A stretch of DNA of 8,150 nucleotides from Escherichia coli (lineage in GTDB: Bacteria > Pseudomonadota > Gammaproteobacteria > Enterobacterales > Enterobacteriaceae), in NCBI RefSeq assembly GCF_048403405.1, contig NZ_CP183134.1. One strand, given 5' to 3'. Under the pieces are notes generated by a model. The model was not told where the DNA came from. It saw nothing but the letters and a program-made list of their open reading frames with translations, and did not search any database. Both the position numbers and the translations under genes were made by a program. This document shows positions 1 through 8,150 of this stretch, piece after piece; position 1 is the first letter of the stretch, and the number at the start of each line of letters is the position of its first letter.

Positions 1-653
1 TCTGTTTCGATACCGCGTGTTTCCATCGCACAGGCAGACTTTCCGAGGTGAATACCCGGCGTTTTCTCAAGCCCCTGTCGCTCGTATGAACGATGGTCTA
101 TCTCTTTCTGATAACCGGCGTTCGCCAGTGCCCTGTTTGCATGGTCAGCCCATGATGCACGCCACGTCTCGGCATGTGTCCGGTCGTTCCAGTCCCTGAC
201 CTTTCCGCCGAACCCCGCAGGTCCGACAGCCCTCGTGGTCAGCATAATGTGCGCATGGGGATTTGTTTTATCCATGTGATGGAACGCCACATCAGCAATC
301 ATGCCCTGACTGACAAAGTTTTCTCTGACAAAGGCGAGAACGGTTTCCCGTGCGGCATCCTGCGGCAGTTCGTGGGGGATGGCGAGTTCAATTTCCCGCG
401 CAAGTTGTGAGTTCTTCCGGCGTTCGGCCTTCTCAACGGCATTCCAGAGTTCGGCACGGTTCGTACACCAGGCAGGGGCTGTCGCGGGGGTCAGAATCAC
501 AGCCTCAGCCACACCGCTTTTGCGGGTGTAGTCGTGAGTCAGTCCGGTACGCTCATCAAGCATTAGTGAACCAGAACGATAGGCAGCAGAAGCAACGGCG
601 CTGTAGCCGTTGCTTCTGGAGATGATTTTCATACTGAGATGATAAATCGCCAT
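1..653 (-). CDS. mobA: MobA/MobL-family relaxase (MOBQ-like), 5' portion only (N-terminal ~217 codons); remainder lies before the window start
   Basis: Identical to 4075-4727, which is the 5' end of the full mobA at 2562-4727. ATG on minus strand at 651-653. Not in the ORF track because it runs off the window edge. Confidence 0.8.
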   Translation of the reverse strand, partial: MAIYHLSMKIISRSNGYSAVASAAYRSGSLMLDERTGLTHDYTRKSGVAEAVILTPATAPAWCTNRAELWNAVEKAERRKNSQLAREIELAIPHELPQDAARETVLAFVRENFVSQGMIADVAFHHMDKTNPHAHIMLTTRAVGPAGFGGKVRDWNDRTHAETWRASWADHANRALANAGYQKEIDHRSYERQGLEKTPGIHLGKSACAMETRGIET

Positions 654-831
654 TTCTGCCGTAATGCCTTTTTGCAGTTTTCTTTCAGCCCCGCAGGGCG
701 CACACAATCGAAACGGAGTGGAGATTGTATAAGTGCGCATTTCGTGATTTGCCGTGCATTATGCCAGCTCAGTTTTTAAACTACCAGTGACGCGCTAAAA
801 TGCGATTTTTCATCGCGCATGGAGTTACATC
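654..831. other. Putative oriT in the mobA-mobC divergent intergenic region (nic-like motif TAAGTGCGC at 730-738, inverted repeat ACAATC 704-709 / GATTGT 723-728)
   Basis: The motif gtATAAGTGCGCat resembles the MOBQ/RSF1010-type nic core (GTAAGTGCGCCCT as I recall it) and is immediately preceded by an inverted repeat. Position between divergent relaxase and accessory genes matches RSF1010-type organisation. Confidence 0.5.
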
Positions 832-1086
832 ATGAGCAGAACGCTCGAACAGAAGATTGCTGATGCTGAGGCGAGATTACAGCGCCTGAAGGCGAAGAGC
901 CGGAGCCTGGACACAGCGCAGAAGGTCATTGTGGGTGCAGCATTGCTGGCAAAGGTCAGAAAGCCGGAGGAAGTGCAGTTGCGAGCCTGGTTACTCCAGT
1001 TCCTGAAGGCAGAGGTGACACGGCAGGCTGATGTGACGCGAATACTGCCGCTGATTAACGAGCTGGAGGCGCTGCCAGAGCAGTGA
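832..1086 (+). CDS. mobC: MobC-like relaxosome accessory protein (84 aa)
   Basis: Complete ORF with ATG at 832 and GGAG Shine-Dalgarno at 821-824. Divergent from mobA across the putative oriT. The segment QKVIVGAALLAKVRKPEEVQLRAWLLQFL resembles RSF1010 MobC (RKVLVGAMILAKV...) from memory. Confidence 0.65.
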   Translation: MSRTLEQKIADAEARLQRLKAKSRSLDTAQKVIVGAALLAKVRKPEEVQLRAWLLQFLKAEVTRQADVTRILPLINELEALPEQ

Positions 1087-1095
1087 TTGTATCGT

Positions 1096-1155
1096 CCGCT
1101 CGCCGCAGCCCAGCGACCGAGCGTTAGCGAGCGAGTGGGCGAGGAAGCGGAAGTG
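1096..1155. other. ColE1/pMB1-like conserved segment, possible single-strand initiation / primosome assembly site
   Basis: ccgctcgccgcagcccagcgaccgagcgttagcgagcgagtgggcgaggaagcggaagtg is about 85% identical, by eye, to the pBR322/pUC segment ccgctcgccgcagccgaacgaccgagcgcagcgagtcagtgagcgaggaagcggaagag that lies next to the pMB1 DnaA box. Function is inferred, not shown. Confidence 0.35.
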
Positions 1156-1236
1156 AATCAGTCGCCATGTTGAGCACATACGCACGGTTTTTCGACAGGT
1201 GATATGCGCTGAACCCGCATGAATACTGGATTTCCA

Positions 1237-1281
1237 CAGGATTGGAGGGGGTGTATTCGGAATCTTCAATCCTGGTTTTTT
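1237..1281 (+). terminator. Hairpin followed by T6; candidate intrinsic terminator downstream of mobC, or a structured ori element
   Basis: 8-bp stem CAGGATTG (1237-1244) / CAATCCTG (1267-1274), 22-nt loop, then tttttt at 1276-1281. The loop is unusually long for a canonical terminator. Confidence 0.3.
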
Positions 1282-1325
1282 GCAAAACATTGTTTTTATT
1301 GGATTTTTATTTTCAGCACCCCAAG

Positions 1326-1334
1326 TTATCCACA
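1326..1334 (+). promoter_or_regulatory. DnaA box (TTATCCACA, perfect consensus)
   Basis: Exact 9-mer TTATCCACA, directly upstream of the AT-rich region and iterons. Confidence 0.6.
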
Positions 1335-1431
1335 GGCTCGCCGTTAAGTTTTTAAGATCTTATTTTTAGATCTTTTTTTTTAAAACCTTTTTAGGTCTTG
1401 TAACCACATGATTTTAAAGGTGTTCTGGCGA
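1335..1431. other. AT-rich region of the vegetative origin, with two GATC sites (1356-1359, 1369-1372)
   Basis: Long A/T runs (gttaagtttttaagatcttatttttagatctttttttttaaaacctttttagg) between the DnaA box and the iterons. Layout resembles pSC101-type origins. Confidence 0.5.
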
Positions 1432-1519
1432 GATAGGTGGAGCTTTTGGGGGTGATAGGTGGAGCTTTTGGGGGTGATAGGTGGAGCTTTTGGGGGTGAT
1501 AAGTGGAGCTTTTGGGGGT
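1432..1519 (+). repeat. Iterons: 4 tandem 22-bp direct repeats GATAGGTGGAGCTTTTGGGGGT (the fourth has one mismatch, GATAAGTGG)
   Basis: Perfect head-to-tail repeats at 1432-1453, 1454-1475, 1476-1497 and 1498-1519, immediately upstream of a Rep_3 initiator gene. Confidence 0.85.
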
Positions 1520-1540
1520 GTAATCCACAGAAAAAAGGGG

Positions 1541-1570
1541 TTGCAAAAAAAAAACTTCCACCAATATGAT
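1541..1570 (+). promoter_or_regulatory. Putative repA promoter (-35 TTGCAA 1541-1546, 18-bp spacer, -10 TATGAT 1565-1570)
   Basis: Sigma70-like hexamers about 49 nt upstream of the repA ATG. The -10 overlaps an iteron-like half-site GATAGGTGG at 1568-1576. Confidence 0.4.
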
Positions 1571-1598
1571 AGGTGGCGTACAGTAAAAAAACGCCACC
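1558..1598. promoter_or_regulatory. Inverted repeats carrying iteron half-sites; putative RepA autoregulatory operator
   Basis: CCACC (1558-1562) pairs with GGTGG (1572-1576), and GGTGGCG (1572-1578) pairs with CGCCACC (1592-1598). Both overlap or flank the putative -10. Iteron-family plasmids typically have such operators. Confidence 0.45.
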
Positions 1599-1618
1599 AA
1601 TAGCAACGAGCAAGCGAA

Positions 1619-2320
1619 ATGTCAGATCTGATAGCTTACAAATCAAACGCCCTTATCGAGGCAAGCTACAAGCTCACTTTGCAGGAACAGCGCTTCCTGC
1701 TGGTCTGTATCAGCCGCCTGAAATCCGGAGAAGATTCCCCTTCGCCGGATGAACAAAAAACCATGACCATCACGGCTGCAGAGTTTCATGATGCCTTTCC
1801 TGACATGGGACGGCAGCACGCTGAAGCTAGGCTCAAGGAAGCGATAGATCGCCTCTGGGACAGGTCAGTAATCATCAAGAACGAGGAAAAACGAGAAGAG
1901 TTCCGCTGGGTGCAGTACCGGGCGCAGTATTTCAAAGGTGAGGCGAAAGTAGAGATCACCTTCTCCGATGCCATCATGCCGTATCTGACACAGCTCAAGG
2001 GGCAGTTTACGCGGGTAGTCGTGAAGAACGTCTCCAGCCTCTCCAGCACCTACAGCATCCGCATTTACGAGCTGCTCCAGCAGTTCCGCAGCACCGGTGA
2101 CAGAACGATAGCTATCGATGATTTCCGAACCATGCTTGCCGTTGAAGATAAATATCAACAATTCAAAGACTTGAATAAGATGATAATCAAGCCAGCCATC
2201 GCCGAACTGAACGAAAAAAGCGATCTGGTTGTAACGGTTGAGACGATCAAAAAGGGGCGCACGGTTGTAGCCCTGCACTTTCGCTTCAAGGAAGACAAAC
2301 AGATCAAGATGACGATCTAG
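1619..2320 (+). CDS. repA: Rep_3-family iteron-binding replication initiator (233 aa)
   Basis: Complete ORF directly downstream of the iterons. N-terminus MSDLIAYKSNALIEASYKLTLQEQRFLLVCISRL and later segments (ITFSDAIMPYLTQLK, YSIRIYELLQQF) resemble pSC101/pPS10-type RepA as I recall them. Weak Shine-Dalgarno. Confidence 0.88.
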   Translation: MSDLIAYKSNALIEASYKLTLQEQRFLLVCISRLKSGEDSPSPDEQKTMTITAAEFHDAFPDMGRQHAEARLKEAIDRLWDRSVIIKNEEKREEFRWVQYRAQYFKGEAKVEITFSDAIMPYLTQLKGQFTRVVVKNVSSLSSTYSIRIYELLQQFRSTGDRTIAIDDFRTMLAVEDKYQQFKDLNKMIIKPAIAELNEKSDLVVTVETIKKGRTVVALHFRFKEDKQIKMTI

Positions 2321-2339
2321 AATCGATTTTAAGGCACCT

Positions 2340-2366
2340 AAAACGCTCACTGTCGCGTTTTTCTTG
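2340..2366 (+). terminator. Weak hairpin plus T-run downstream of repA
   Basis: AAAACGC (2340-2346) / GCGTTTT (2355-2361) with an 8-nt loop, followed by ttcttg. The stem is AT-rich, so this would be weak at best. Confidence 0.25.
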
Positions 2367-2427
2367 TGTCAGGAATGCGAAGGTACTATTGAAGTGAAAA
2401 GTTGCGTCAAAAACGCTCTGATGCAGC

Positions 2428-2454
2428 AAAAAAAGAACCCCCAATTTTTGGGGG
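2428..2454 (-). terminator. Rho-independent terminator for minus-strand (mobA) transcription
   Basis: GC-rich hairpin CCCCCAA-ttt-TTGGGGG (2438-2454). On the minus strand it is followed by a U-run (the A7 at 2428-2434 on plus). About 108 nt downstream of the mobA stop. Confidence 0.5.
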
Positions 2455-2561
2455 CGGAAAAACAAAACTATGTTTGCGCTATGTGAGTGTGCTTCTTGCA
2501 TTCATCCCTGTCGATGAACATCGACGAACATAACACGATGTTAAACAAAACAAAATATTGT

Positions 2562-4727
2562 TCACATTCCCTGTGACCAACCGCGATCAGGTCTCCTCTC
2601 GGTGGCGTGTGTTCGTGCATCTTCCTCGCGCCGCCATTCGTCCCAGGTACGATTGAAACCCAGCGAGCGGAACAGATGATCCGGCTGTTTTTCTGGTGTG
2701 TTGACGACAGCAAAAAGCGGTGCCTCACGGGTTTTCAGATGAAACTCCATAAGTTCCGGTGCAGGTGATATGTGGCTGTCTGCATCATGATTTACGGCAA
2801 CACCATACCCTGCATACCGTAACCCCTTATCGGTCAGTGCACTGATAACCAGCTGGCTGTTATCGGCTGAGGGAACGGCAAACGCGGGATACAGCGTACC
2901 ATTAAGCCGGACAACACCGCCCAGAGAGTCATCCACGCCCATGACCAGCAAAAGCTGAAGCTGGCGGGTTTCCCGGTCGACAGAACTCATGACCGGCATC
3001 AGCGTCGGTGGCAGACGTCCCTGCGTAAAATCCACCTTCCTTGCTGCCAGTGATGGCATGGCTGGCTGGCGGTCTTCTCCAAGACAGAAAGACTCCGGCC
3101 ATGTCTTCGGCTGGCGGAGATTGCGGGTATGTTGCGGCCATGTCTGGCAAACCTGCGTCAGAAGTTGCTCAAAGGTCGCAGAGGAATAAATACGTTGCAG
3201 TGGTGGATGTTGGCCGATTTCGCTTCGGTCACAGATATAACCACTCCTGTCACGTATTAAATCAACACTCTCAAAGATCCTGGTGCGGTATTTCTCCAGC
3301 TCGTTCCCCCAGAGCGTGTATTCTCCGTTCCGGTTGTGAAGCAGAAGGTAACAAGTCATTTCCCCGTTACCAGGCATGGGAGCCTCGCCATACCCCGTAA
3401 CGACTGCTCTCAGCACCCCTGAATCCATAACGGCATTGTCATTTTTCCTGAGCTGTTCCGCTCGTCGCTCCGCGCGACTACGTTCTGTATCCTCCAGCTC
3501 CTTCCGGCGTAATTCATCTTCACGTTTAAGCAACTGGGCTCTGAGAGCTGCAAGGCCGGATTCCCCCCACTGCTGCCACTGTTTTTCAAATGCCGTCTGA
3601 CTCGCGGGAATGTCCTGTTTCTCCACCTTCCGGTAATGCTGTCGCAATTTTTCCATTTGCTGGCTCAGAGACTGGATTTTTCCCTGCTCACTACGGTATT
3701 CCGGTGCAGCCCATTGCATCAGGGGAATACGGGAAAAACCGGACGAAAACGGCGATGATTTTTTCAGGCTGGCAGCATGGCTCATCGCTTCCTTTCGTTC
3801 GGTGTTCAGCTCTTCCCAGCGTCTGCGCGTCGCCTGCATATCTGCCATCATCGACATGGCGTTACTGGTGAGTTTCCATGCCGCGTTACTGTCCTTCGGC
3901 AACGCTTCGATGATGTCACGTAGTGTGTACGAAGTTGCGTTGTCAGGAAGCCCGATATTCAGAAGGTCAGCCACACGGCGGGCAGGCTCTGTCAGCCCGC
4001 TGTTCCTGAGTTCGGTGCGGGAAATCTGTATTTCCAGGTTAAGCCTGTTAATCAGACGATTCTGTTCGCCGCGTTCTGTTTCGATACCGCGTGTTTCCAT
4101 CGCACAGGCAGACTTTCCGAGGTGAATACCCGGCGTTTTCTCAAGCCCCTGTCGCTCGTATGAACGATGGTCTATCTCTTTCTGATAACCGGCGTTCGCC
4201 AGTGCCCTGTTTGCATGGTCAGCCCATGATGCACGCCACGTCTCGGCATGTGTCCGGTCGTTCCAGTCCCTGACCTTTCCGCCGAACCCCGCAGGTCCGA
4301 CAGCCCTCGTGGTCAGCATAATGTGCGCATGGGGATTTGTTTTATCCATGTGATGGAACGCCACATCAGCAATCATGCCCTGACTGACAAAGTTTTCTCT
4401 GACAAAGGCGAGAACGGTTTCCCGTGCGGCATCCTGCGGCAGTTCGTGGGGGATGGCGAGTTCAATTTCCCGCGCAAGTTGTGAGTTCTTCCGGCGTTCG
4501 GCCTTCTCAACGGCATTCCAGAGTTCGGCACGGTTCGTACACCAGGCAGGGGCTGTCGCGGGGGTCAGAATCACAGCCTCAGCCACACCGCTTTTGCGGG
4601 TGTAGTCGTGAGTCAGTCCGGTACGCTCATCAAGCATTAGTGAACCAGAACGATAGGCAGCAGAAGCAACGGCGCTGTAGCCGTTGCTTCTGGAGATGAT
4701 TTTCATACTGAGATGATAAATCGCCAT
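2562..4727 (-). CDS. mobA: MobA/MobL-family relaxase, MOBQ-like (721 aa from the MAIYHL start; the ORF track extends to an upstream ATG at 4814)
   Basis: N-terminal MAIYHLSMKIISRSNGYSAVASAAYRSG (Tyr at residue 25, as in RSF1010 MobA), histidine motif NPHAHIML, and WADHANRAL, IDHRSYERQG, GIHLGKS, METRGI all parallel RSF1010 MobA motifs. The upstream ATG at 4812-4814 overlaps the nic-like motif and has no Shine-Dalgarno. Confidence 0.85.
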   Translation of the reverse strand: MAIYHLSMKIISRSNGYSAVASAAYRSGSLMLDERTGLTHDYTRKSGVAEAVILTPATAPAWCTNRAELWNAVEKAERRKNSQLAREIELAIPHELPQDAARETVLAFVRENFVSQGMIADVAFHHMDKTNPHAHIMLTTRAVGPAGFGGKVRDWNDRTHAETWRASWADHANRALANAGYQKEIDHRSYERQGLEKTPGIHLGKSACAMETRGIETERGEQNRLINRLNLEIQISRTELRNSGLTEPARRVADLLNIGLPDNATSYTLRDIIEALPKDSNAAWKLTSNAMSMMADMQATRRRWEELNTERKEAMSHAASLKKSSPFSSGFSRIPLMQWAAPEYRSEQGKIQSLSQQMEKLRQHYRKVEKQDIPASQTAFEKQWQQWGESGLAALRAQLLKREDELRRKELEDTERSRAERRAEQLRKNDNAVMDSGVLRAVVTGYGEAPMPGNGEMTCYLLLHNRNGEYTLWGNELEKYRTRIFESVDLIRDRSGYICDRSEIGQHPPLQRIYSSATFEQLLTQVCQTWPQHTRNLRQPKTWPESFCLGEDRQPAMPSLAARKVDFTQGRLPPTLMPVMSSVDRETRQLQLLLVMGVDDSLGGVVRLNGTLYPAFAVPSADNSQLVISALTDKGLRYAGYGVAVNHDADSHISPAPELMEFHLKTREAPLFAVVNTPEKQPDHLFRSLGFNRTWDEWRREEDARTHATERRPDRGWSQGM

Positions 4728-4905
4728 TTCTGCCGTAATGCCTTTTTGCAGTTTTCTTTCAGCCCCGCAGGGCGCACACAATCGAAACGGAGTGGAGATT
4801 GTATAAGTGCGCATTTCGTGATTTGCCGTGCATTATGCCAGCTCAGTTTTTAAACTACCAGTGACGCGCTAAAATGCGATTTTTCATCGCGCATGGAGTT
4901 ACATC
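4728..4905. other. Putative oriT, copy 2 (nic-like motif at 4804-4812)
   Basis: Identical to 654-831. Confidence 0.5.
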
Positions 4906-5160
4906 ATGAGCAGAACGCTCGAACAGAAGATTGCTGATGCTGAGGCGAGATTACAGCGCCTGAAGGCGAAGAGCCGGAGCCTGGACACAGCGCAGAAGGT
5001 CATTGTGGGTGCAGCATTGCTGGCAAAGGTCAGAAAGCCGGAGGAAGTGCAGTTGCGAGCCTGGTTACTCCAGTTCCTGAAGGCAGAGGTGACACGGCAG
5101 GCTGATGTGACGCGAATACTGCCGCTGATTAACGAGCTGGAGGCGCTGCCAGAGCAGTGA
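4906..5160 (+). CDS. mobC: MobC-like relaxosome accessory protein, copy 2
   Basis: Identical to 832-1086. Confidence 0.65.
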   Translation: MSRTLEQKIADAEARLQRLKAKSRSLDTAQKVIVGAALLAKVRKPEEVQLRAWLLQFLKAEVTRQADVTRILPLINELEALPEQ

Positions 5161-5169
5161 TTGTATCGT

Positions 5170-5229
5170 CCGCTCGCCGCAGCCCAGCGACCGAGCGTTA
5201 GCGAGCGAGTGGGCGAGGAAGCGGAAGTG
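5170..5229. other. ColE1/pMB1-like conserved segment (possible primosome assembly site), copy 2
   Basis: Identical to 1096-1155. Confidence 0.35.
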
Positions 5230-5310
5230 AATCAGTCGCCATGTTGAGCACATACGCACGGTTTTTCGACAGGTGATATGCGCTGAACCCGCATGAATAC
5301 TGGATTTCCA

Positions 5311-5355
5311 CAGGATTGGAGGGGGTGTATTCGGAATCTTCAATCCTGGTTTTTT
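5311..5355 (+). terminator. Hairpin plus T6, copy 2
   Basis: Identical to 1237-1281. Confidence 0.3.
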
Positions 5356-5399
5356 GCAAAACATTGTTTTTATTGGATTTTTATTTTCAGCACCCCAAG

Positions 5400-5408
5400 T
5401 TATCCACA
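5400..5408 (+). promoter_or_regulatory. DnaA box TTATCCACA, copy 2
   Basis: Identical to 1326-1334. Confidence 0.6.
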
Positions 5409-5505
5409 GGCTCGCCGTTAAGTTTTTAAGATCTTATTTTTAGATCTTTTTTTTTAAAACCTTTTTAGGTCTTGTAACCACATGATTTTAAAGGTGTTCT
5501 GGCGA
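5409..5505. other. AT-rich origin region with two GATC sites, copy 2
   Basis: Identical to 1335-1431. Confidence 0.5.
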
Positions 5506-5593
5506 GATAGGTGGAGCTTTTGGGGGTGATAGGTGGAGCTTTTGGGGGTGATAGGTGGAGCTTTTGGGGGTGATAAGTGGAGCTTTTGGGGGT
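5506..5593 (+). repeat. Iterons, 4 x 22 bp, copy 2
   Basis: Identical to 1432-1519. Confidence 0.85.
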
Positions 5594-5614
5594 GTAATCC
5601 ACAGAAAAAAGGGG

Positions 5615-5644
5615 TTGCAAAAAAAAAACTTCCACCAATATGAT
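5615..5644 (+). promoter_or_regulatory. Putative repA promoter, copy 2
   Basis: Identical to 1541-1570. Confidence 0.4.
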
Positions 5645-5672
5645 AGGTGGCGTACAGTAAAAAAACGCCACC
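5632..5672. promoter_or_regulatory. Inverted-repeat operator, copy 2
   Basis: Identical to 1558-1598. Confidence 0.45.
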
Positions 5673-5692
5673 AATAGCAACGAGCAAGCGAA

Positions 5693-6394
5693 ATGTCAGA
5701 TCTGATAGCTTACAAATCAAACGCCCTTATCGAGGCAAGCTACAAGCTCACTTTGCAGGAACAGCGCTTCCTGCTGGTCTGTATCAGCCGCCTGAAATCC
5801 GGAGAAGATTCCCCTTCGCCGGATGAACAAAAAACCATGACCATCACGGCTGCAGAGTTTCATGATGCCTTTCCTGACATGGGACGGCAGCACGCTGAAG
5901 CTAGGCTCAAGGAAGCGATAGATCGCCTCTGGGACAGGTCAGTAATCATCAAGAACGAGGAAAAACGAGAAGAGTTCCGCTGGGTGCAGTACCGGGCGCA
6001 GTATTTCAAAGGTGAGGCGAAAGTAGAGATCACCTTCTCCGATGCCATCATGCCGTATCTGACACAGCTCAAGGGGCAGTTTACGCGGGTAGTCGTGAAG
6101 AACGTCTCCAGCCTCTCCAGCACCTACAGCATCCGCATTTACGAGCTGCTCCAGCAGTTCCGCAGCACCGGTGACAGAACGATAGCTATCGATGATTTCC
6201 GAACCATGCTTGCCGTTGAAGATAAATATCAACAATTCAAAGACTTGAATAAGATGATAATCAAGCCAGCCATCGCCGAACTGAACGAAAAAAGCGATCT
6301 GGTTGTAACGGTTGAGACGATCAAAAAGGGGCGCACGGTTGTAGCCCTGCACTTTCGCTTCAAGGAAGACAAACAGATCAAGATGACGATCTAG
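5693..6394 (+). CDS. repA: Rep_3-family replication initiator, copy 2
   Basis: Protein identical to 1619-2320. Confidence 0.88.
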   Translation: MSDLIAYKSNALIEASYKLTLQEQRFLLVCISRLKSGEDSPSPDEQKTMTITAAEFHDAFPDMGRQHAEARLKEAIDRLWDRSVIIKNEEKREEFRWVQYRAQYFKGEAKVEITFSDAIMPYLTQLKGQFTRVVVKNVSSLSSTYSIRIYELLQQFRSTGDRTIAIDDFRTMLAVEDKYQQFKDLNKMIIKPAIAELNEKSDLVVTVETIKKGRTVVALHFRFKEDKQIKMTI

Positions 6395-6413
6395 AATCGA
6401 TTTTAAGGCACCT

Positions 6414-6440
6414 AAAACGCTCACTGTCGCGTTTTTCTTG
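6414..6440 (+). terminator. Weak hairpin plus T-run downstream of repA, copy 2
   Basis: Identical to 2340-2366. Confidence 0.25.
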
Positions 6441-6501
6441 TGTCAGGAATGCGAAGGTACTATTGAAGTGAAAAGTTGCGTCAAAAACGCTCTGATGCAG
6501 C

Positions 6502-6528
6502 AAAAAAAGAACCCCCAATTTTTGGGGG
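6502..6528 (-). terminator. Rho-independent terminator for mobA, copy 2
   Basis: Identical to 2428-2454. Confidence 0.5.
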
Positions 6529-6635
6529 CGGAAAAACAAAACTATGTTTGCGCTATGTGAGTGTGCTTCTTGCATTCATCCCTGTCGATGAACATCGACG
6601 AACATAACACGATGTTAAACAAAACAAAATATTGT

Positions 6636-8150
6636 TCACATTCCCTGTGACCAACCGCGATCAGGTCTCCTCTCGGTGGCGTGTGTTCGTGCATCTTCCT
6701 CGCGCCGCCATTCGTCCCAGGTACGATTGAAACCCAGCGAGCGGAACAGATGATCCGGCTGTTTTTCTGGTGTGTTGACGACAGCAAAAAGCGGTGCCTC
6801 ACGGGTTTTCAGATGAAACTCCATAAGTTCCGGTGCAGGTGATATGTGGCTGTCTGCATCATGATTTACGGCAACACCATACCCTGCATACCGTAACCCC
6901 TTATCGGTCAGTGCACTGATAACCAGCTGGCTGTTATCGGCTGAGGGAACGGCAAACGCGGGATACAGCGTACCATTAAGCCGGACAACACCGCCCAGAG
7001 AGTCATCCACGCCCATGACCAGCAAAAGCTGAAGCTGGCGGGTTTCCCGGTCGACAGAACTCATGACCGGCATCAGCGTCGGTGGCAGACGTCCCTGCGT
7101 AAAATCCACCTTCCTTGCTGCCAGTGATGGCATGGCTGGCTGGCGGTCTTCTCCAAGACAGAAAGACTCCGGCCATGTCTTCGGCTGGCGGAGATTGCGG
7201 GTATGTTGCGGCCATGTCTGGCAAACCTGCGTCAGAAGTTGCTCAAAGGTCGCAGAGGAATAAATACGTTGCAGTGGTGGATGTTGGCCGATTTCGCTTC
7301 GGTCACAGATATAACCACTCCTGTCACGTATTAAATCAACACTCTCAAAGATCCTGGTGCGGTATTTCTCCAGCTCGTTCCCCCAGAGCGTGTATTCTCC
7401 GTTCCGGTTGTGAAGCAGAAGGTAACAAGTCATTTCCCCGTTACCAGGCATGGGAGCCTCGCCATACCCCGTAACGACTGCTCTCAGCACCCCTGAATCC
7501 ATAACGGCATTGTCATTTTTCCTGAGCTGTTCCGCTCGTCGCTCCGCGCGACTACGTTCTGTATCCTCCAGCTCCTTCCGGCGTAATTCATCTTCACGTT
7601 TAAGCAACTGGGCTCTGAGAGCTGCAAGGCCGGATTCCCCCCACTGCTGCCACTGTTTTTCAAATGCCGTCTGACTCGCGGGAATGTCCTGTTTCTCCAC
7701 CTTCCGGTAATGCTGTCGCAATTTTTCCATTTGCTGGCTCAGAGACTGGATTTTTCCCTGCTCACTACGGTATTCCGGTGCAGCCCATTGCATCAGGGGA
7801 ATACGGGAAAAACCGGACGAAAACGGCGATGATTTTTTCAGGCTGGCAGCATGGCTCATCGCTTCCTTTCGTTCGGTGTTCAGCTCTTCCCAGCGTCTGC
7901 GCGTCGCCTGCATATCTGCCATCATCGACATGGCGTTACTGGTGAGTTTCCATGCCGCGTTACTGTCCTTCGGCAACGCTTCGATGATGTCGCGTAGTGT
8001 GTACGAAGTTGCGTTGTCAGGAAGCCCGATATTCAGAAGGTCGAGCCACACGGCGGGCAGGCTCTGTCGGCCCCGCTGTTCCTGAGTTCGGTGCGGGAAA
8101 TCTGTATTTCCAGGTTAGGCCTGTTAATCAGACGATTCTGTTCGCCGCGT
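6636..8150 (-). CDS. mobA: MobA relaxase, copy 2; 5' end runs off the window and carries apparent frameshifts near 8043 and 8071 relative to copy 1
   Basis: Identical to copy 1 up to about 7991. The ORF track ends at a GTG at 8051 because two 1-bp insertions shift the frame. I suspect these are consensus errors at a contig end rather than a true pseudogene. Confidence 0.6.

Follow-up and report, generated by a model that had tools for sequence, protein, structure and literature searches.

The window, by which we mean the whole stretch of 8150 nt that was analysed, consists of two head-to-tail copies of a small plasmid unit carrying a relaxase gene (mobA), an oriT region, mobC, an iteron-type replication origin (oriV), and a replication initiator gene (repA). 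This order had been proposed in an earlier note on the same DNA, and it is correct, with the three genes and both origins lying where that note had placed them. The features are listed below.

1..4074, plus strand: copy 1, the 4074-bp unit; unique period, 99.9% identity to at least 10 circular 4073-4074-bp records
4075..8150, plus strand: copy 2, 4076 nt; matches copy 1 except for five edits close to the end
654..831 (second copy 4728-4905), no strand: oriT region, the 178-bp mobA-mobC intergenic region, set by gene-end coordinates
832..1086 (second copy 4906-5160), plus strand: mobC, putative relaxase accessory protein, 84 aa, after the RefSeq annotation
1276..1618 (second copy 5350-5692), plus strand: iteron-type oriV with iterons, A+T tract, and DnaA boxes
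1276-1426: 71% A+T tract, with GATC at 1356 and 1369
1326-1334: perfect DnaA box, TTATCCACA
1427-1514: four 22-bp iterons, GGGGTGATAGGTGGAGCTTTTG
1521-1529: second, DnaA-like box, TAATCCACA
1567-1601: inverted half-iteron pair just upstream of repA
1619..2320 (second copy 5693-6394), plus strand: repA, Rep_3-family replication initiator, 233 aa (PF01051, PF21205)
2304-2501: small fourth ORF, 65 aa
2562..4727, minus strand: mobA (mobQ), MOBQ-class relaxase, 721 aa, the sole intact copy, across the junction of copies 1 and 2 (PF03389, NF041496)
6636..8150, minus strand: 3' part of the second mobA, disrupted by two inserted bases; continues into 1-653 if the record is circular
7992..8118, plus strand: cluster of copy-2-specific edits, from gapped alignment; reversion restores copy 1

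Tandem structure and the underlying unit

A self-comparison of the window, which had been put forward earlier as a check, returned a single period: over the scanned offsets of 3900-4299, the window matched itself only at offset 4074, with 97.96% identity across 4076 positions when no gaps were allowed, and all other offsets remained at ~28%. In a gapped comparison the two copies are the same except for five edits, and undoing these edits in copy 2 yields a sequence identical to copy 1. The earlier description of the window as an exact head-to-tail dimer of a 4074-bp replicon thus holds for the arrangement and the period, but not for the word exact, given the five edits and a second copy of 4076 nt. 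The tandem copy number is 2.000 (8150 = 2 x 4074 + 2), and gapped alignment of the end bears out the claim that the last base of the window corresponds to base 4074 of the unit, with start and end sharing phase to the base. Every base of the window is accounted for by the unit sequence plus two inserted bases; there are no foreign flanks, and non-plasmid sequence was found nowhere within the 8150 nt. The plasmid circle has been opened at an arbitrary point within mobA, and a start in the middle of this gene indicates an unrotated, uncurated linearisation.

A true unit of about 4.07 kb, as previously suggested, is confirmed by the 99.9% identity of the unit to at least 10 independently deposited circular plasmids of 4073-4074 bp from E. 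coli and Salmonella, examples being NZ_CP145702.1, CP082422.2, NZ_CP135717.1 (pMTY1586_untypable2), and NZ_CP033765.1. The records with at least 99% identity are 4073-4074-bp monomers both in PLSDB (10 of 10) and among RefSeq complete E. coli genomes (11 of 11). When NZ_CP135717.1 is rotated to the same start, copy 1 differs from it by five substitutions; the sole amino-acid difference concerns residue 493 of MobA (D in the window, G in NZ_CP135717.1), and the Rep and MobC products are identical. The deposited 4074-bp plasmids have the same three annotated genes over the full unit, although they are monomers, unlike the window. Among complete E. coli genomes, 566 of 5426 contained relatives.

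Replication and mobilization functions

RepA is identical to the RefSeq replication initiation protein WP_001281396.1 and matches both PF01051 (Rep3_N, E 2.9e-39) and PF21205 (Rep3_C, E 6.3e-22), and MOB-suite assigns a 99.9% identical deposited record to replicon type rep_cluster_1778. The Rep_3 initiator would bind the four 22-bp iterons and, together with host DnaA at the flanking DnaA boxes, may open the adjacent A+T-rich tract. By analogy with other Rep_3 replicons, the inverted half-iterons are probably the operator for Rep autoregulation, where Rep would repress its own promoter. Both strands of the circularised unit were searched for a cer/dif-like Xer site (an 11-bp XerC arm, a 6-8-bp spacer, and an 11-bp XerD arm) and none was detected; the best candidate has 6/22 mismatches to the consensus, no better than chance, since the best hit in each of 200 shuffles had 4-7 (median 6). 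Therefore, the unit contains nothing detectable that would resolve real dimers.

A 178-bp spacer separates the two divergent genes, between the mobA start codon, which ends at 653 (minus strand), and the first base of mobC at 832. This oriT region contains TAAGTGCGC at 730-738, which we take to resemble the nick region of RSF1010, and an imperfect inverted repeat formed by GCGCACACAATC (698-709) and GATTGTATAAGTGCGC (723-738). A local imperfect hairpin adjoining TAAGTGCGC is visible in DNA folds, and the stability of the oriT folds is no better than that of shuffled sequences on either strand (z 0.18 and -0.81). The spacer has the same length as the published MOBQ4 oriT fragment, and in MOBQ4 plasmids a 178-bp oriT fragment has been found mobilizable by experiment (PMC6856555). 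MobC is identical to the product annotated in RefSeq as relaxase accessory protein MobC (WP_000091744.1) and gave no Pfam or NCBIfam match in a profile search; the name is putative and rests on the RefSeq annotation together with published genetics, in which deletion of mobC cuts the mobilization of MOBQ4 plasmids by 0.6-1.5 log (PMC6856555).

MobA carries a MobA_MobL domain at its N terminus (PF03389, residues 18-213, E 3.2e-70) and scores 264 bits with the NCBIfam model NF041496 (MobQ), whose cutoff is 200. RefSeq names the equivalent gene mobQ, and a 99.9% identical record is typed MOBQ by MOB-suite. With the help of MobC, this relaxase is predicted to nick the 178-bp oriT between the two divergent genes, after which a co-resident conjugative helper could transfer the plasmid, the relaxase presumably preferring to act in cis. 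MOBQ4 relaxases are known to act preferentially in cis, and their plasmids are mobilized by helper conjugative plasmids (PMC6856555).

Differences between the two copies

Copy 2 departs from copy 1 at the following positions.

7992 (copy-1 3918): A>G
8043: +G
8069 (copy-1 3994): A>G
8071: +C in a C-run
8118 (copy-1 4042): A>G

The differences thus comprise three A>G substitutions and the insertions +G and +C, and they span 127 bp that end 32 bases before the window end, the remaining 3,900+ bp being free of changes. In agreement with the earlier note, which had expected no substantial divergence outside the terminal 160 bp, all five lie inside the last 159 bases; for five independent changes placed at random on 4074 bp, the probability of finding every one in the terminal 160 bp is ~9e-8. 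The 83 mismatches seen between the copies without gaps reflect the register shift after the first insertion. At all five sites copy 1 has the state of the reference NZ_CP135717.1, and the copy-2 variants occur in none of 398 related PLSDB records, among which the best identity is 97.4% (5 differences in 191). A 43-mer bearing the errors was searched against IMG/VR and the GTDB representative genomes, the whole window against PLSDB, RefSeq complete E. coli, and the INPHARED phages, and the truncated 471-aa ORF by exact sequence; the window itself came back from none of these. One of the inserted bases sits in a homopolymer run, and three of the edits share a GTC context, which looks like systematic error.

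Because of the two inserted bases, the second mobA leaves its reading frame after residue 228 and terminates at codon 257. When this gene is translated across the window ends, 228 residues match the intact MobA before the frameshift; the ORF at 6636-8051 has only 471 aa, whereas the intact copy has an open frame of 750 aa. The relaxase domain (residues 1-228; Pfam 18-213) is spared and the C-terminal part alone is truncated. Since the differences cluster at the 3' end, are absent from relatives, and disrupt a reading frame, we read them as consensus errors at the end of a linear contig, and probably not as biology. Such end-clustered errors mark the differences between the copies as technical, without marking the doubling itself as such.

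Origin of the doubled structure

In our judgement, there is a good probability that the window is the known 4074-bp plasmid doubled during long-read assembly, with the edits at its end being uncorrected consensus errors. In this case the assembler would have circularised a small replicon along a path covering it twice, and reads exceeding one unit in length may have seeded that path. Long-read assemblers have been found to give ~200% contiguity for small plasmids (Wick & Holt benchmarking, PMC6966772), and "doubled plasmids" as well as duplicated or missing bases at contig starts and ends are known pitfalls (PMC9980784). Run-on contigs of the same plasmid also occur in other assemblies, at 2.28 units (L003) and 1.985 units (L005), with copies that are 100% identical. 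It had been left open previously whether the dimer was an assembly artefact or a genuine multimer. The evidence leans toward an artefact of assembly or representation because the differences are end-located, unique, and frameshifting and because over-length contigs of this plasmid recur. Doubling by the assembler is accordingly likelier than a genuine dimer, although we infer both the sequencing technology and the assembler's part as cause, and a copy number of exactly 2.000 is also expected from a genuinely dimeric circle.

The principal alternative, which we regard as unlikely but deserving of consideration, is that the source strain contains, largely or in part, a genuine head-to-tail circular dimer formed by RecA-dependent recombination, the end differences still being sequencing errors. 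The exact copy number fits such a dimer, as do the otherwise identical copies that a recent homologous-recombination event would be expected to leave, and the unit has no detectable Xer/cer-type resolution site, a cer-like site having been reported only for the MOBQ42 subgroup (PMC6856555). Wild-type E. coli commonly contains RecA-dependent multimers of its multicopy plasmids, which nanopore reads show directly, and in recA+ E. coli multimers rise with copy number (PMC12012879); pIGWZ12-type plasmids are put at ~15 copies per chromosome in the account given in PMC6856555. That account also describes these plasmids as stable, however, which speaks against heavy multimerisation. Furthermore, all of the closest deposited records are monomers, and the exact MobA of the window is indexed in 810 assembly-collection blocks, in 801 of which the longest carrying contig is of monomer size (2-5 kb). 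The doubling of small plasmids by assemblers is itself a documented artefact (PMC6966772, PMC9980784), and a genuine dimer would normally coexist with monomers, leaving the genetic unit at 4074 bp. It is very unlikely that the source strain keeps the plasmid mainly as a head-to-tail dimer, which would make it a natural iteron plasmid in which dimerisation is tolerated or exploited. If this were true, the two oriT copies per dimer and a cis-acting relaxase mean that relaxase-mediated oriT-oriT recombination might resolve dimers and act as a resolution system.

Readings in which the sequence as deposited is biologically real throughout fare worse. A stable dimer whose halves are diverging, with five real mutations inactivating one mobA, we find hardly credible: the changes do lie in a coding region where they leave the relaxase domain intact and truncate the C-terminal part alone, and the record NZ_CP100746.1 is a heterodimer of two different MOBQ41 units, but five changes within 127 bp near the window end have a probability of ~1e-7 under random placement, two of them are frameshifting insertions (one in a homopolymer), three share the GTC context, and the variants are found in 0 of 398 relatives. 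In the true heterodimer NZ_CP100746.1, moreover, the 384 differences are scattered over the unit, a pattern quite unlike that of the window. A heterodimer of two plasmid variants of that kind was ruled out here, as the copies are identical outside the end cluster. Equally improbable to the point of neglect is a tandem duplication integrated in the chromosome or in a larger plasmid, of which the window would be an excerpt. Relatives or fragments of the unit do occur inside larger replicons, as indicated by four chromosomal sites among the 728 matches in complete E. coli genomes and by 14 matching PLSDB records of conjugative type; however, an arbitrary excerpt would start and end in the same phase only ~1 time in 4074, and the window holds no non-plasmid sequence.

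Implications for the record

These findings matter mainly for quality control. Only 1-4074 should be retained in the record, which should then be circularised and, ideally, made to begin at repA. Left untrimmed, it inflates the plasmid size, duplicates the replicon and relaxase typing, falsely shows mobA as truncated or as a pseudogene where the contig ends, and is open to misreading as a new 8-kb plasmid or a cointegrate. The unit is a common, already described plasmid, a cryptic passenger found very commonly in clinical E. coli and Salmonella, whose replication and mobilization have been studied experimentally, and the window contains nothing novel.

Comparison with known systems

The window resembles doubled plasmids from long-read assemblies in that a small circular replicon appears twice per contig and base-level damage is confined to the end, a likeness of pattern only.

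As judged from its sequence, the unit is a MOBQ41 (pIGWZ12 / pE2022_4-type) plasmid, that is, a cryptic, mobilizable, iteron-controlled theta replicon of Enterobacteriaceae. This assignment is based on the MOBQ relaxase, the Rep_3 initiator, the 178-bp oriT, the origin layout, and near-identity to RefSeq plasmids of the same architecture; likeness to pIGWZ12 and pE2022_4 (KT693143) was judged by published features. MOBQ41 has pIGWZ12 as its prototype and pE2022_4 as its experimental model (Garcillan-Barcia et al. 2019, PMC6856555), and pIGWZ12-type plasmids have also been described by Zaleski et al. 2006/2012/2015, as cited in PMC6856555. A Rep_3 initiator (PF01051) marks MOBQ41 and a ColE2-type Rep marks MOBQ42 (PMC6856555). 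In size (~4.07 kb) and in hosts (Enterobacteriaceae) the window unit agrees with MOBQ41 plasmids; in both, the backbone is limited to a Rep_3 initiator, a relaxase of the MOBQ class, mobC, and one short hypothetical ORF, and the mobC-mobA oriT spacer is 178 bp long. According to the summary of pIGWZ12 in PMC6856555, the region upstream of rep likewise holds iterons, an A+T-rich stretch, and DnaA boxes in both, with four DnaA-type boxes reported there and two in the window unit at no more than 1 mismatch. The window shows two copies of the unit where MOBQ41 plasmids have one; otherwise nothing of substance differs.

The mobilization module is also similar to that of RSF1010/R1162 (MOBQ1), in which mobA and mobC are likewise divergent with oriT between them and the relaxase belongs to the same MobA_MobL fold family as the window MobA (structural comparison in PMC6856555). 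Unlike RSF1010/R1162, however, the window unit is without a primase fusion or mobB, and it is a Rep_3 iteron replicon rather than one based on RepA/B/C. Finally, MobA of R1162 works in trans, whereas MOBQ4 relaxases prefer cis (PMC6856555).

Results

When the window was compared with itself without gaps at all offsets from 3900 to 4299, identity reached 97.96% across 4076 positions at offset 4074 and stayed at about 28% at the remaining offsets. The 83 ungapped mismatches were confined to copy-1 positions 3918-4076, and aligning the unit ends with gaps reduced them to five edits:

7992, copy 2, A to G
8043, copy 2, inserted G
8069, copy 2, A to G
8071, copy 2, inserted C in a C-run
8118, copy 2, A to G

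Once these edits are undone, copy 2 equals copy 1 base for base; as two of the five are inserted bases and the rest is identical, 8150 = 2 x 4074 + 2. The earlier note had described an exact head-to-tail dimer of a 4074-bp replicon and proposed a self-alignment as the check. That check returned 4074 as the single period, with differences only at copy-1 positions 3918-4076, so the repeat holds and the word "exact" does not. Both ends of the window fall at one unit phase, and all of it is plasmid unit, with foreign sequence absent.

The circular 4074-bp RefSeq plasmid NZ_CP135717.1, rotated to the window start and compared with copy 1, showed five substitutions (740, 1241, 1286, 3213, and 3250) that are common to both copies, and in the terminal 160 bp it agreed with copy 1 throughout. 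A PLSDB search for the copy-2 states, made with the 191 bases at the 3' end of the window, matched 398 records, none above 97.4% identity, a ceiling that corresponds precisely to the five edits. Because NZ_CP135717.1 carries the copy-1 state and no PLSDB match exceeds this ceiling, the copy-2 states are derived and unique to the window. The doubled record itself was absent from PLSDB, the RefSeq complete E. coli genomes, and the INPHARED phages; the 43-mer carrying the edits did not locate it in IMG/VR or among GTDB representative genomes, nor did the truncated ORF in the gene-position index. The edits sit in the second mobA copy, which, read circularly, matches intact MobA for 228 residues before a frameshift leads to a stop at codon 257. 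The probability that five independent changes all fall within the terminal 160 of 4074 positions is about 9e-8. One of the two insertions lengthens a homopolymer.

We also observed a GTC context common to three of the five edits: GTCA>GTCG at two of the positions 7992, 8043, and 8069, and GTC+G at the other. None of these three edits involves a Dam or Dcm motif. Judged from the sequence, this common context suggests a signature of systematic basecalling or consensus error rather than random noise, and the pattern of edits fits a consensus left unpolished where the linear contig ends, rather than mutation.

The unit monomer matches 619 PLSDB records, 586 of which are typed as mobilizable. The best ten of these matches are circular, 4073-4074 bp in length, from E. 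coli and Salmonella, and 99.8-99.9% identical. Among the 5426 RefSeq complete E. coli genomes, 566 carry relatives, and the eleven records there with at least 99% identity are every one 4073-4074 bp long. NZ_CP135717.1 is typed as MOBQ and rep_cluster_1778 and carries three annotated genes, the counterparts of which lie in the window as follows:

832-1086, + strand, mobC; product identical to that of RefSeq in NZ_CP135717.1
1619-2320, + strand, repA; Pfam Rep3_N and Rep3_C; product identical to that of RefSeq in NZ_CP135717.1
2562-4727, - strand, mobA/mobQ; PF03389 at residues 18-213 (E 3e-70), NCBIfam NF041496 at 264 bits (cutoff 200)

The mobA/mobQ gene crosses the junction between copies 1 and 2, and its product differs from that of NZ_CP135717.1 by one amino acid. 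Pfam recognised only the N-terminal MobA_MobL domain (18-213) in the 721-aa MobA, with no significant domain in the C-terminal two thirds (about 240-721), and MobC had no match in profile searches of Pfam and NCBIfam. A 65-aa ORF was also seen in the gap where mobA and repA converge (2304-2501, - strand; second copy at 6378-6575). At the equivalent place in L003, a related metagenome contig, gene callers predict a 72-aa product.

The divergent starts of mobA and mobC are exactly 178 bp apart (654-831). The mobC-repA spacer contains the following elements:

1326-1334, perfect DnaA box, TTATCCACA
71% A+T tract with two GATC sites
1427-1514, four tandem 22-bp iterons
1521-1529, second DnaA-like box
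1567-1601, inverted half-iteron pair, directly ahead of repA

Going by these motifs, the spacer has the layout of a putative iteron origin. With this layout, the genes, and the near-identical circular records of 4073-4074 bp, the earlier reading of a 4.07-kb plasmid (mobA, oriT, mobC, oriV, and repA) shown doubled is supported.

Discussion

The window is probably the product of an assembler doubling the plasmid, with errors at the contig end. Several observations favour such an artefact of representation. The closest public records are monomeric, and the window begins in the middle of mobA, as expected of raw, unrotated output. Over-length contigs of the same plasmid with arbitrary copy numbers exist elsewhere: L003 (ENA ERZ28521472 NODE_1559) spans 9294 bp, or 2.28 tandem units, and the GenBank draft contig L005 (GCA_028632915.1 JAPUPI010000041.1) spans 8087 bp, or 1.985 tandem units, with 100% identical copies in both. 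Benchmarking has documented that contiguity of about 200% is possible for small plasmids in long-read assemblers (PMC6966772), and the SPAdes-style name of L003 implies that over-length representation may extend beyond long-read assemblies.

A real dimer, faithfully reported apart from end errors, is unlikely, yet it has points in its favour. The copy number is exactly an integer, the unit lacks a detectable cer/dif-like Xer core, and multicopy plasmids in wild-type E. coli commonly form genuine multimers through RecA, which nanopore reads reveal (PMC12012879). Against it, the nearest public records are all monomers, and among the 810 blocks of the public assembly collection in which the exact MobA of the window is indexed, the longest carrying contig measures 2-5 kb in 801. 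Assembler doubling and a real dimer are compatible, because reads derived from dimers can be the reason why an assembler closes the circle at twice its length. We consider it very improbable that the two copies of a dimer are diverging, as the tight terminal clustering of the five changes, the homopolymer insertion, and the GTC context fit consensus error. Equally improbable is a tandem array in the chromosome, given that about one arbitrary excerpt in 4074 would have both its ends in register and that no flanking foreign sequence is present. Under either assembler doubling or a real dimer, the heritable unit is 4074 bp, and the doubled record is a useful curation flag.

The search of the whole unit for a cer/dif/psi-like XerCD core gave a best candidate with 6 mismatches of 22, which equals the shuffle median. 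A cer-like site has been noted only for the MOBQ42 subgroup (PMC6856555). MOBQ41 plasmids are multicopy, and nothing seen in the unit explains their escape from the dimer catastrophe.

NZ_CP100746.1 (pR18.0234_8.1k, Salmonella Newport, PLSDB) serves as a contrast, having the form of a dimer made from two distinct molecules. This 8138-bp "complete" plasmid contains two different MOBQ41 units of 4073 and 4065 bp. They differ at 384 of 4078 aligned columns, mostly in the region of rep and the iterons, and each has its own version of Rep, MobQ, and MobC. The record is either a true cointegrate, formed by two variants that shared a host and were perhaps compatible, or a chimeric assembly. The pattern of the window is wholly unlike this, and a heterodimer of distinct units is ruled out by copies that are identical except for the five end edits.

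The MOBQ4 plasmids of enterobacteria were defined by Garcillan-Barcia et al. 2019 (PMC6856555), who describe the MOBQ41 members (prototype pIGWZ12, model pE2022_4) as small and cryptic. Their backbone comprises four genes, encoding a Rep_3-family Rep, MobA, a putative MobC, and a hypothetical protein that is left unannotated; the 65-aa ORF may be this fourth gene. They are theta replicons, present at about 15 copies for each chromosome. Their origin, upstream of rep, combines DnaA boxes and an A+T-rich region with iterons, and the iterons set incompatibility. The oriT is the 178-bp mobC-mobA spacer, deleting mobC reduces transfer by 0.6-1.5 log, the relaxase is at least 500-fold more effective in cis, and the transfer apparatus is supplied by helper plasmids such as R64drd11 (PMC6856555). 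The unit agrees with MOBQ41 in every sequence-level feature tested, its likeness to pIGWZ12 and pE2022_4 being drawn from their published description. The window is a known plasmid of this type, redundantly represented and with no novelty.
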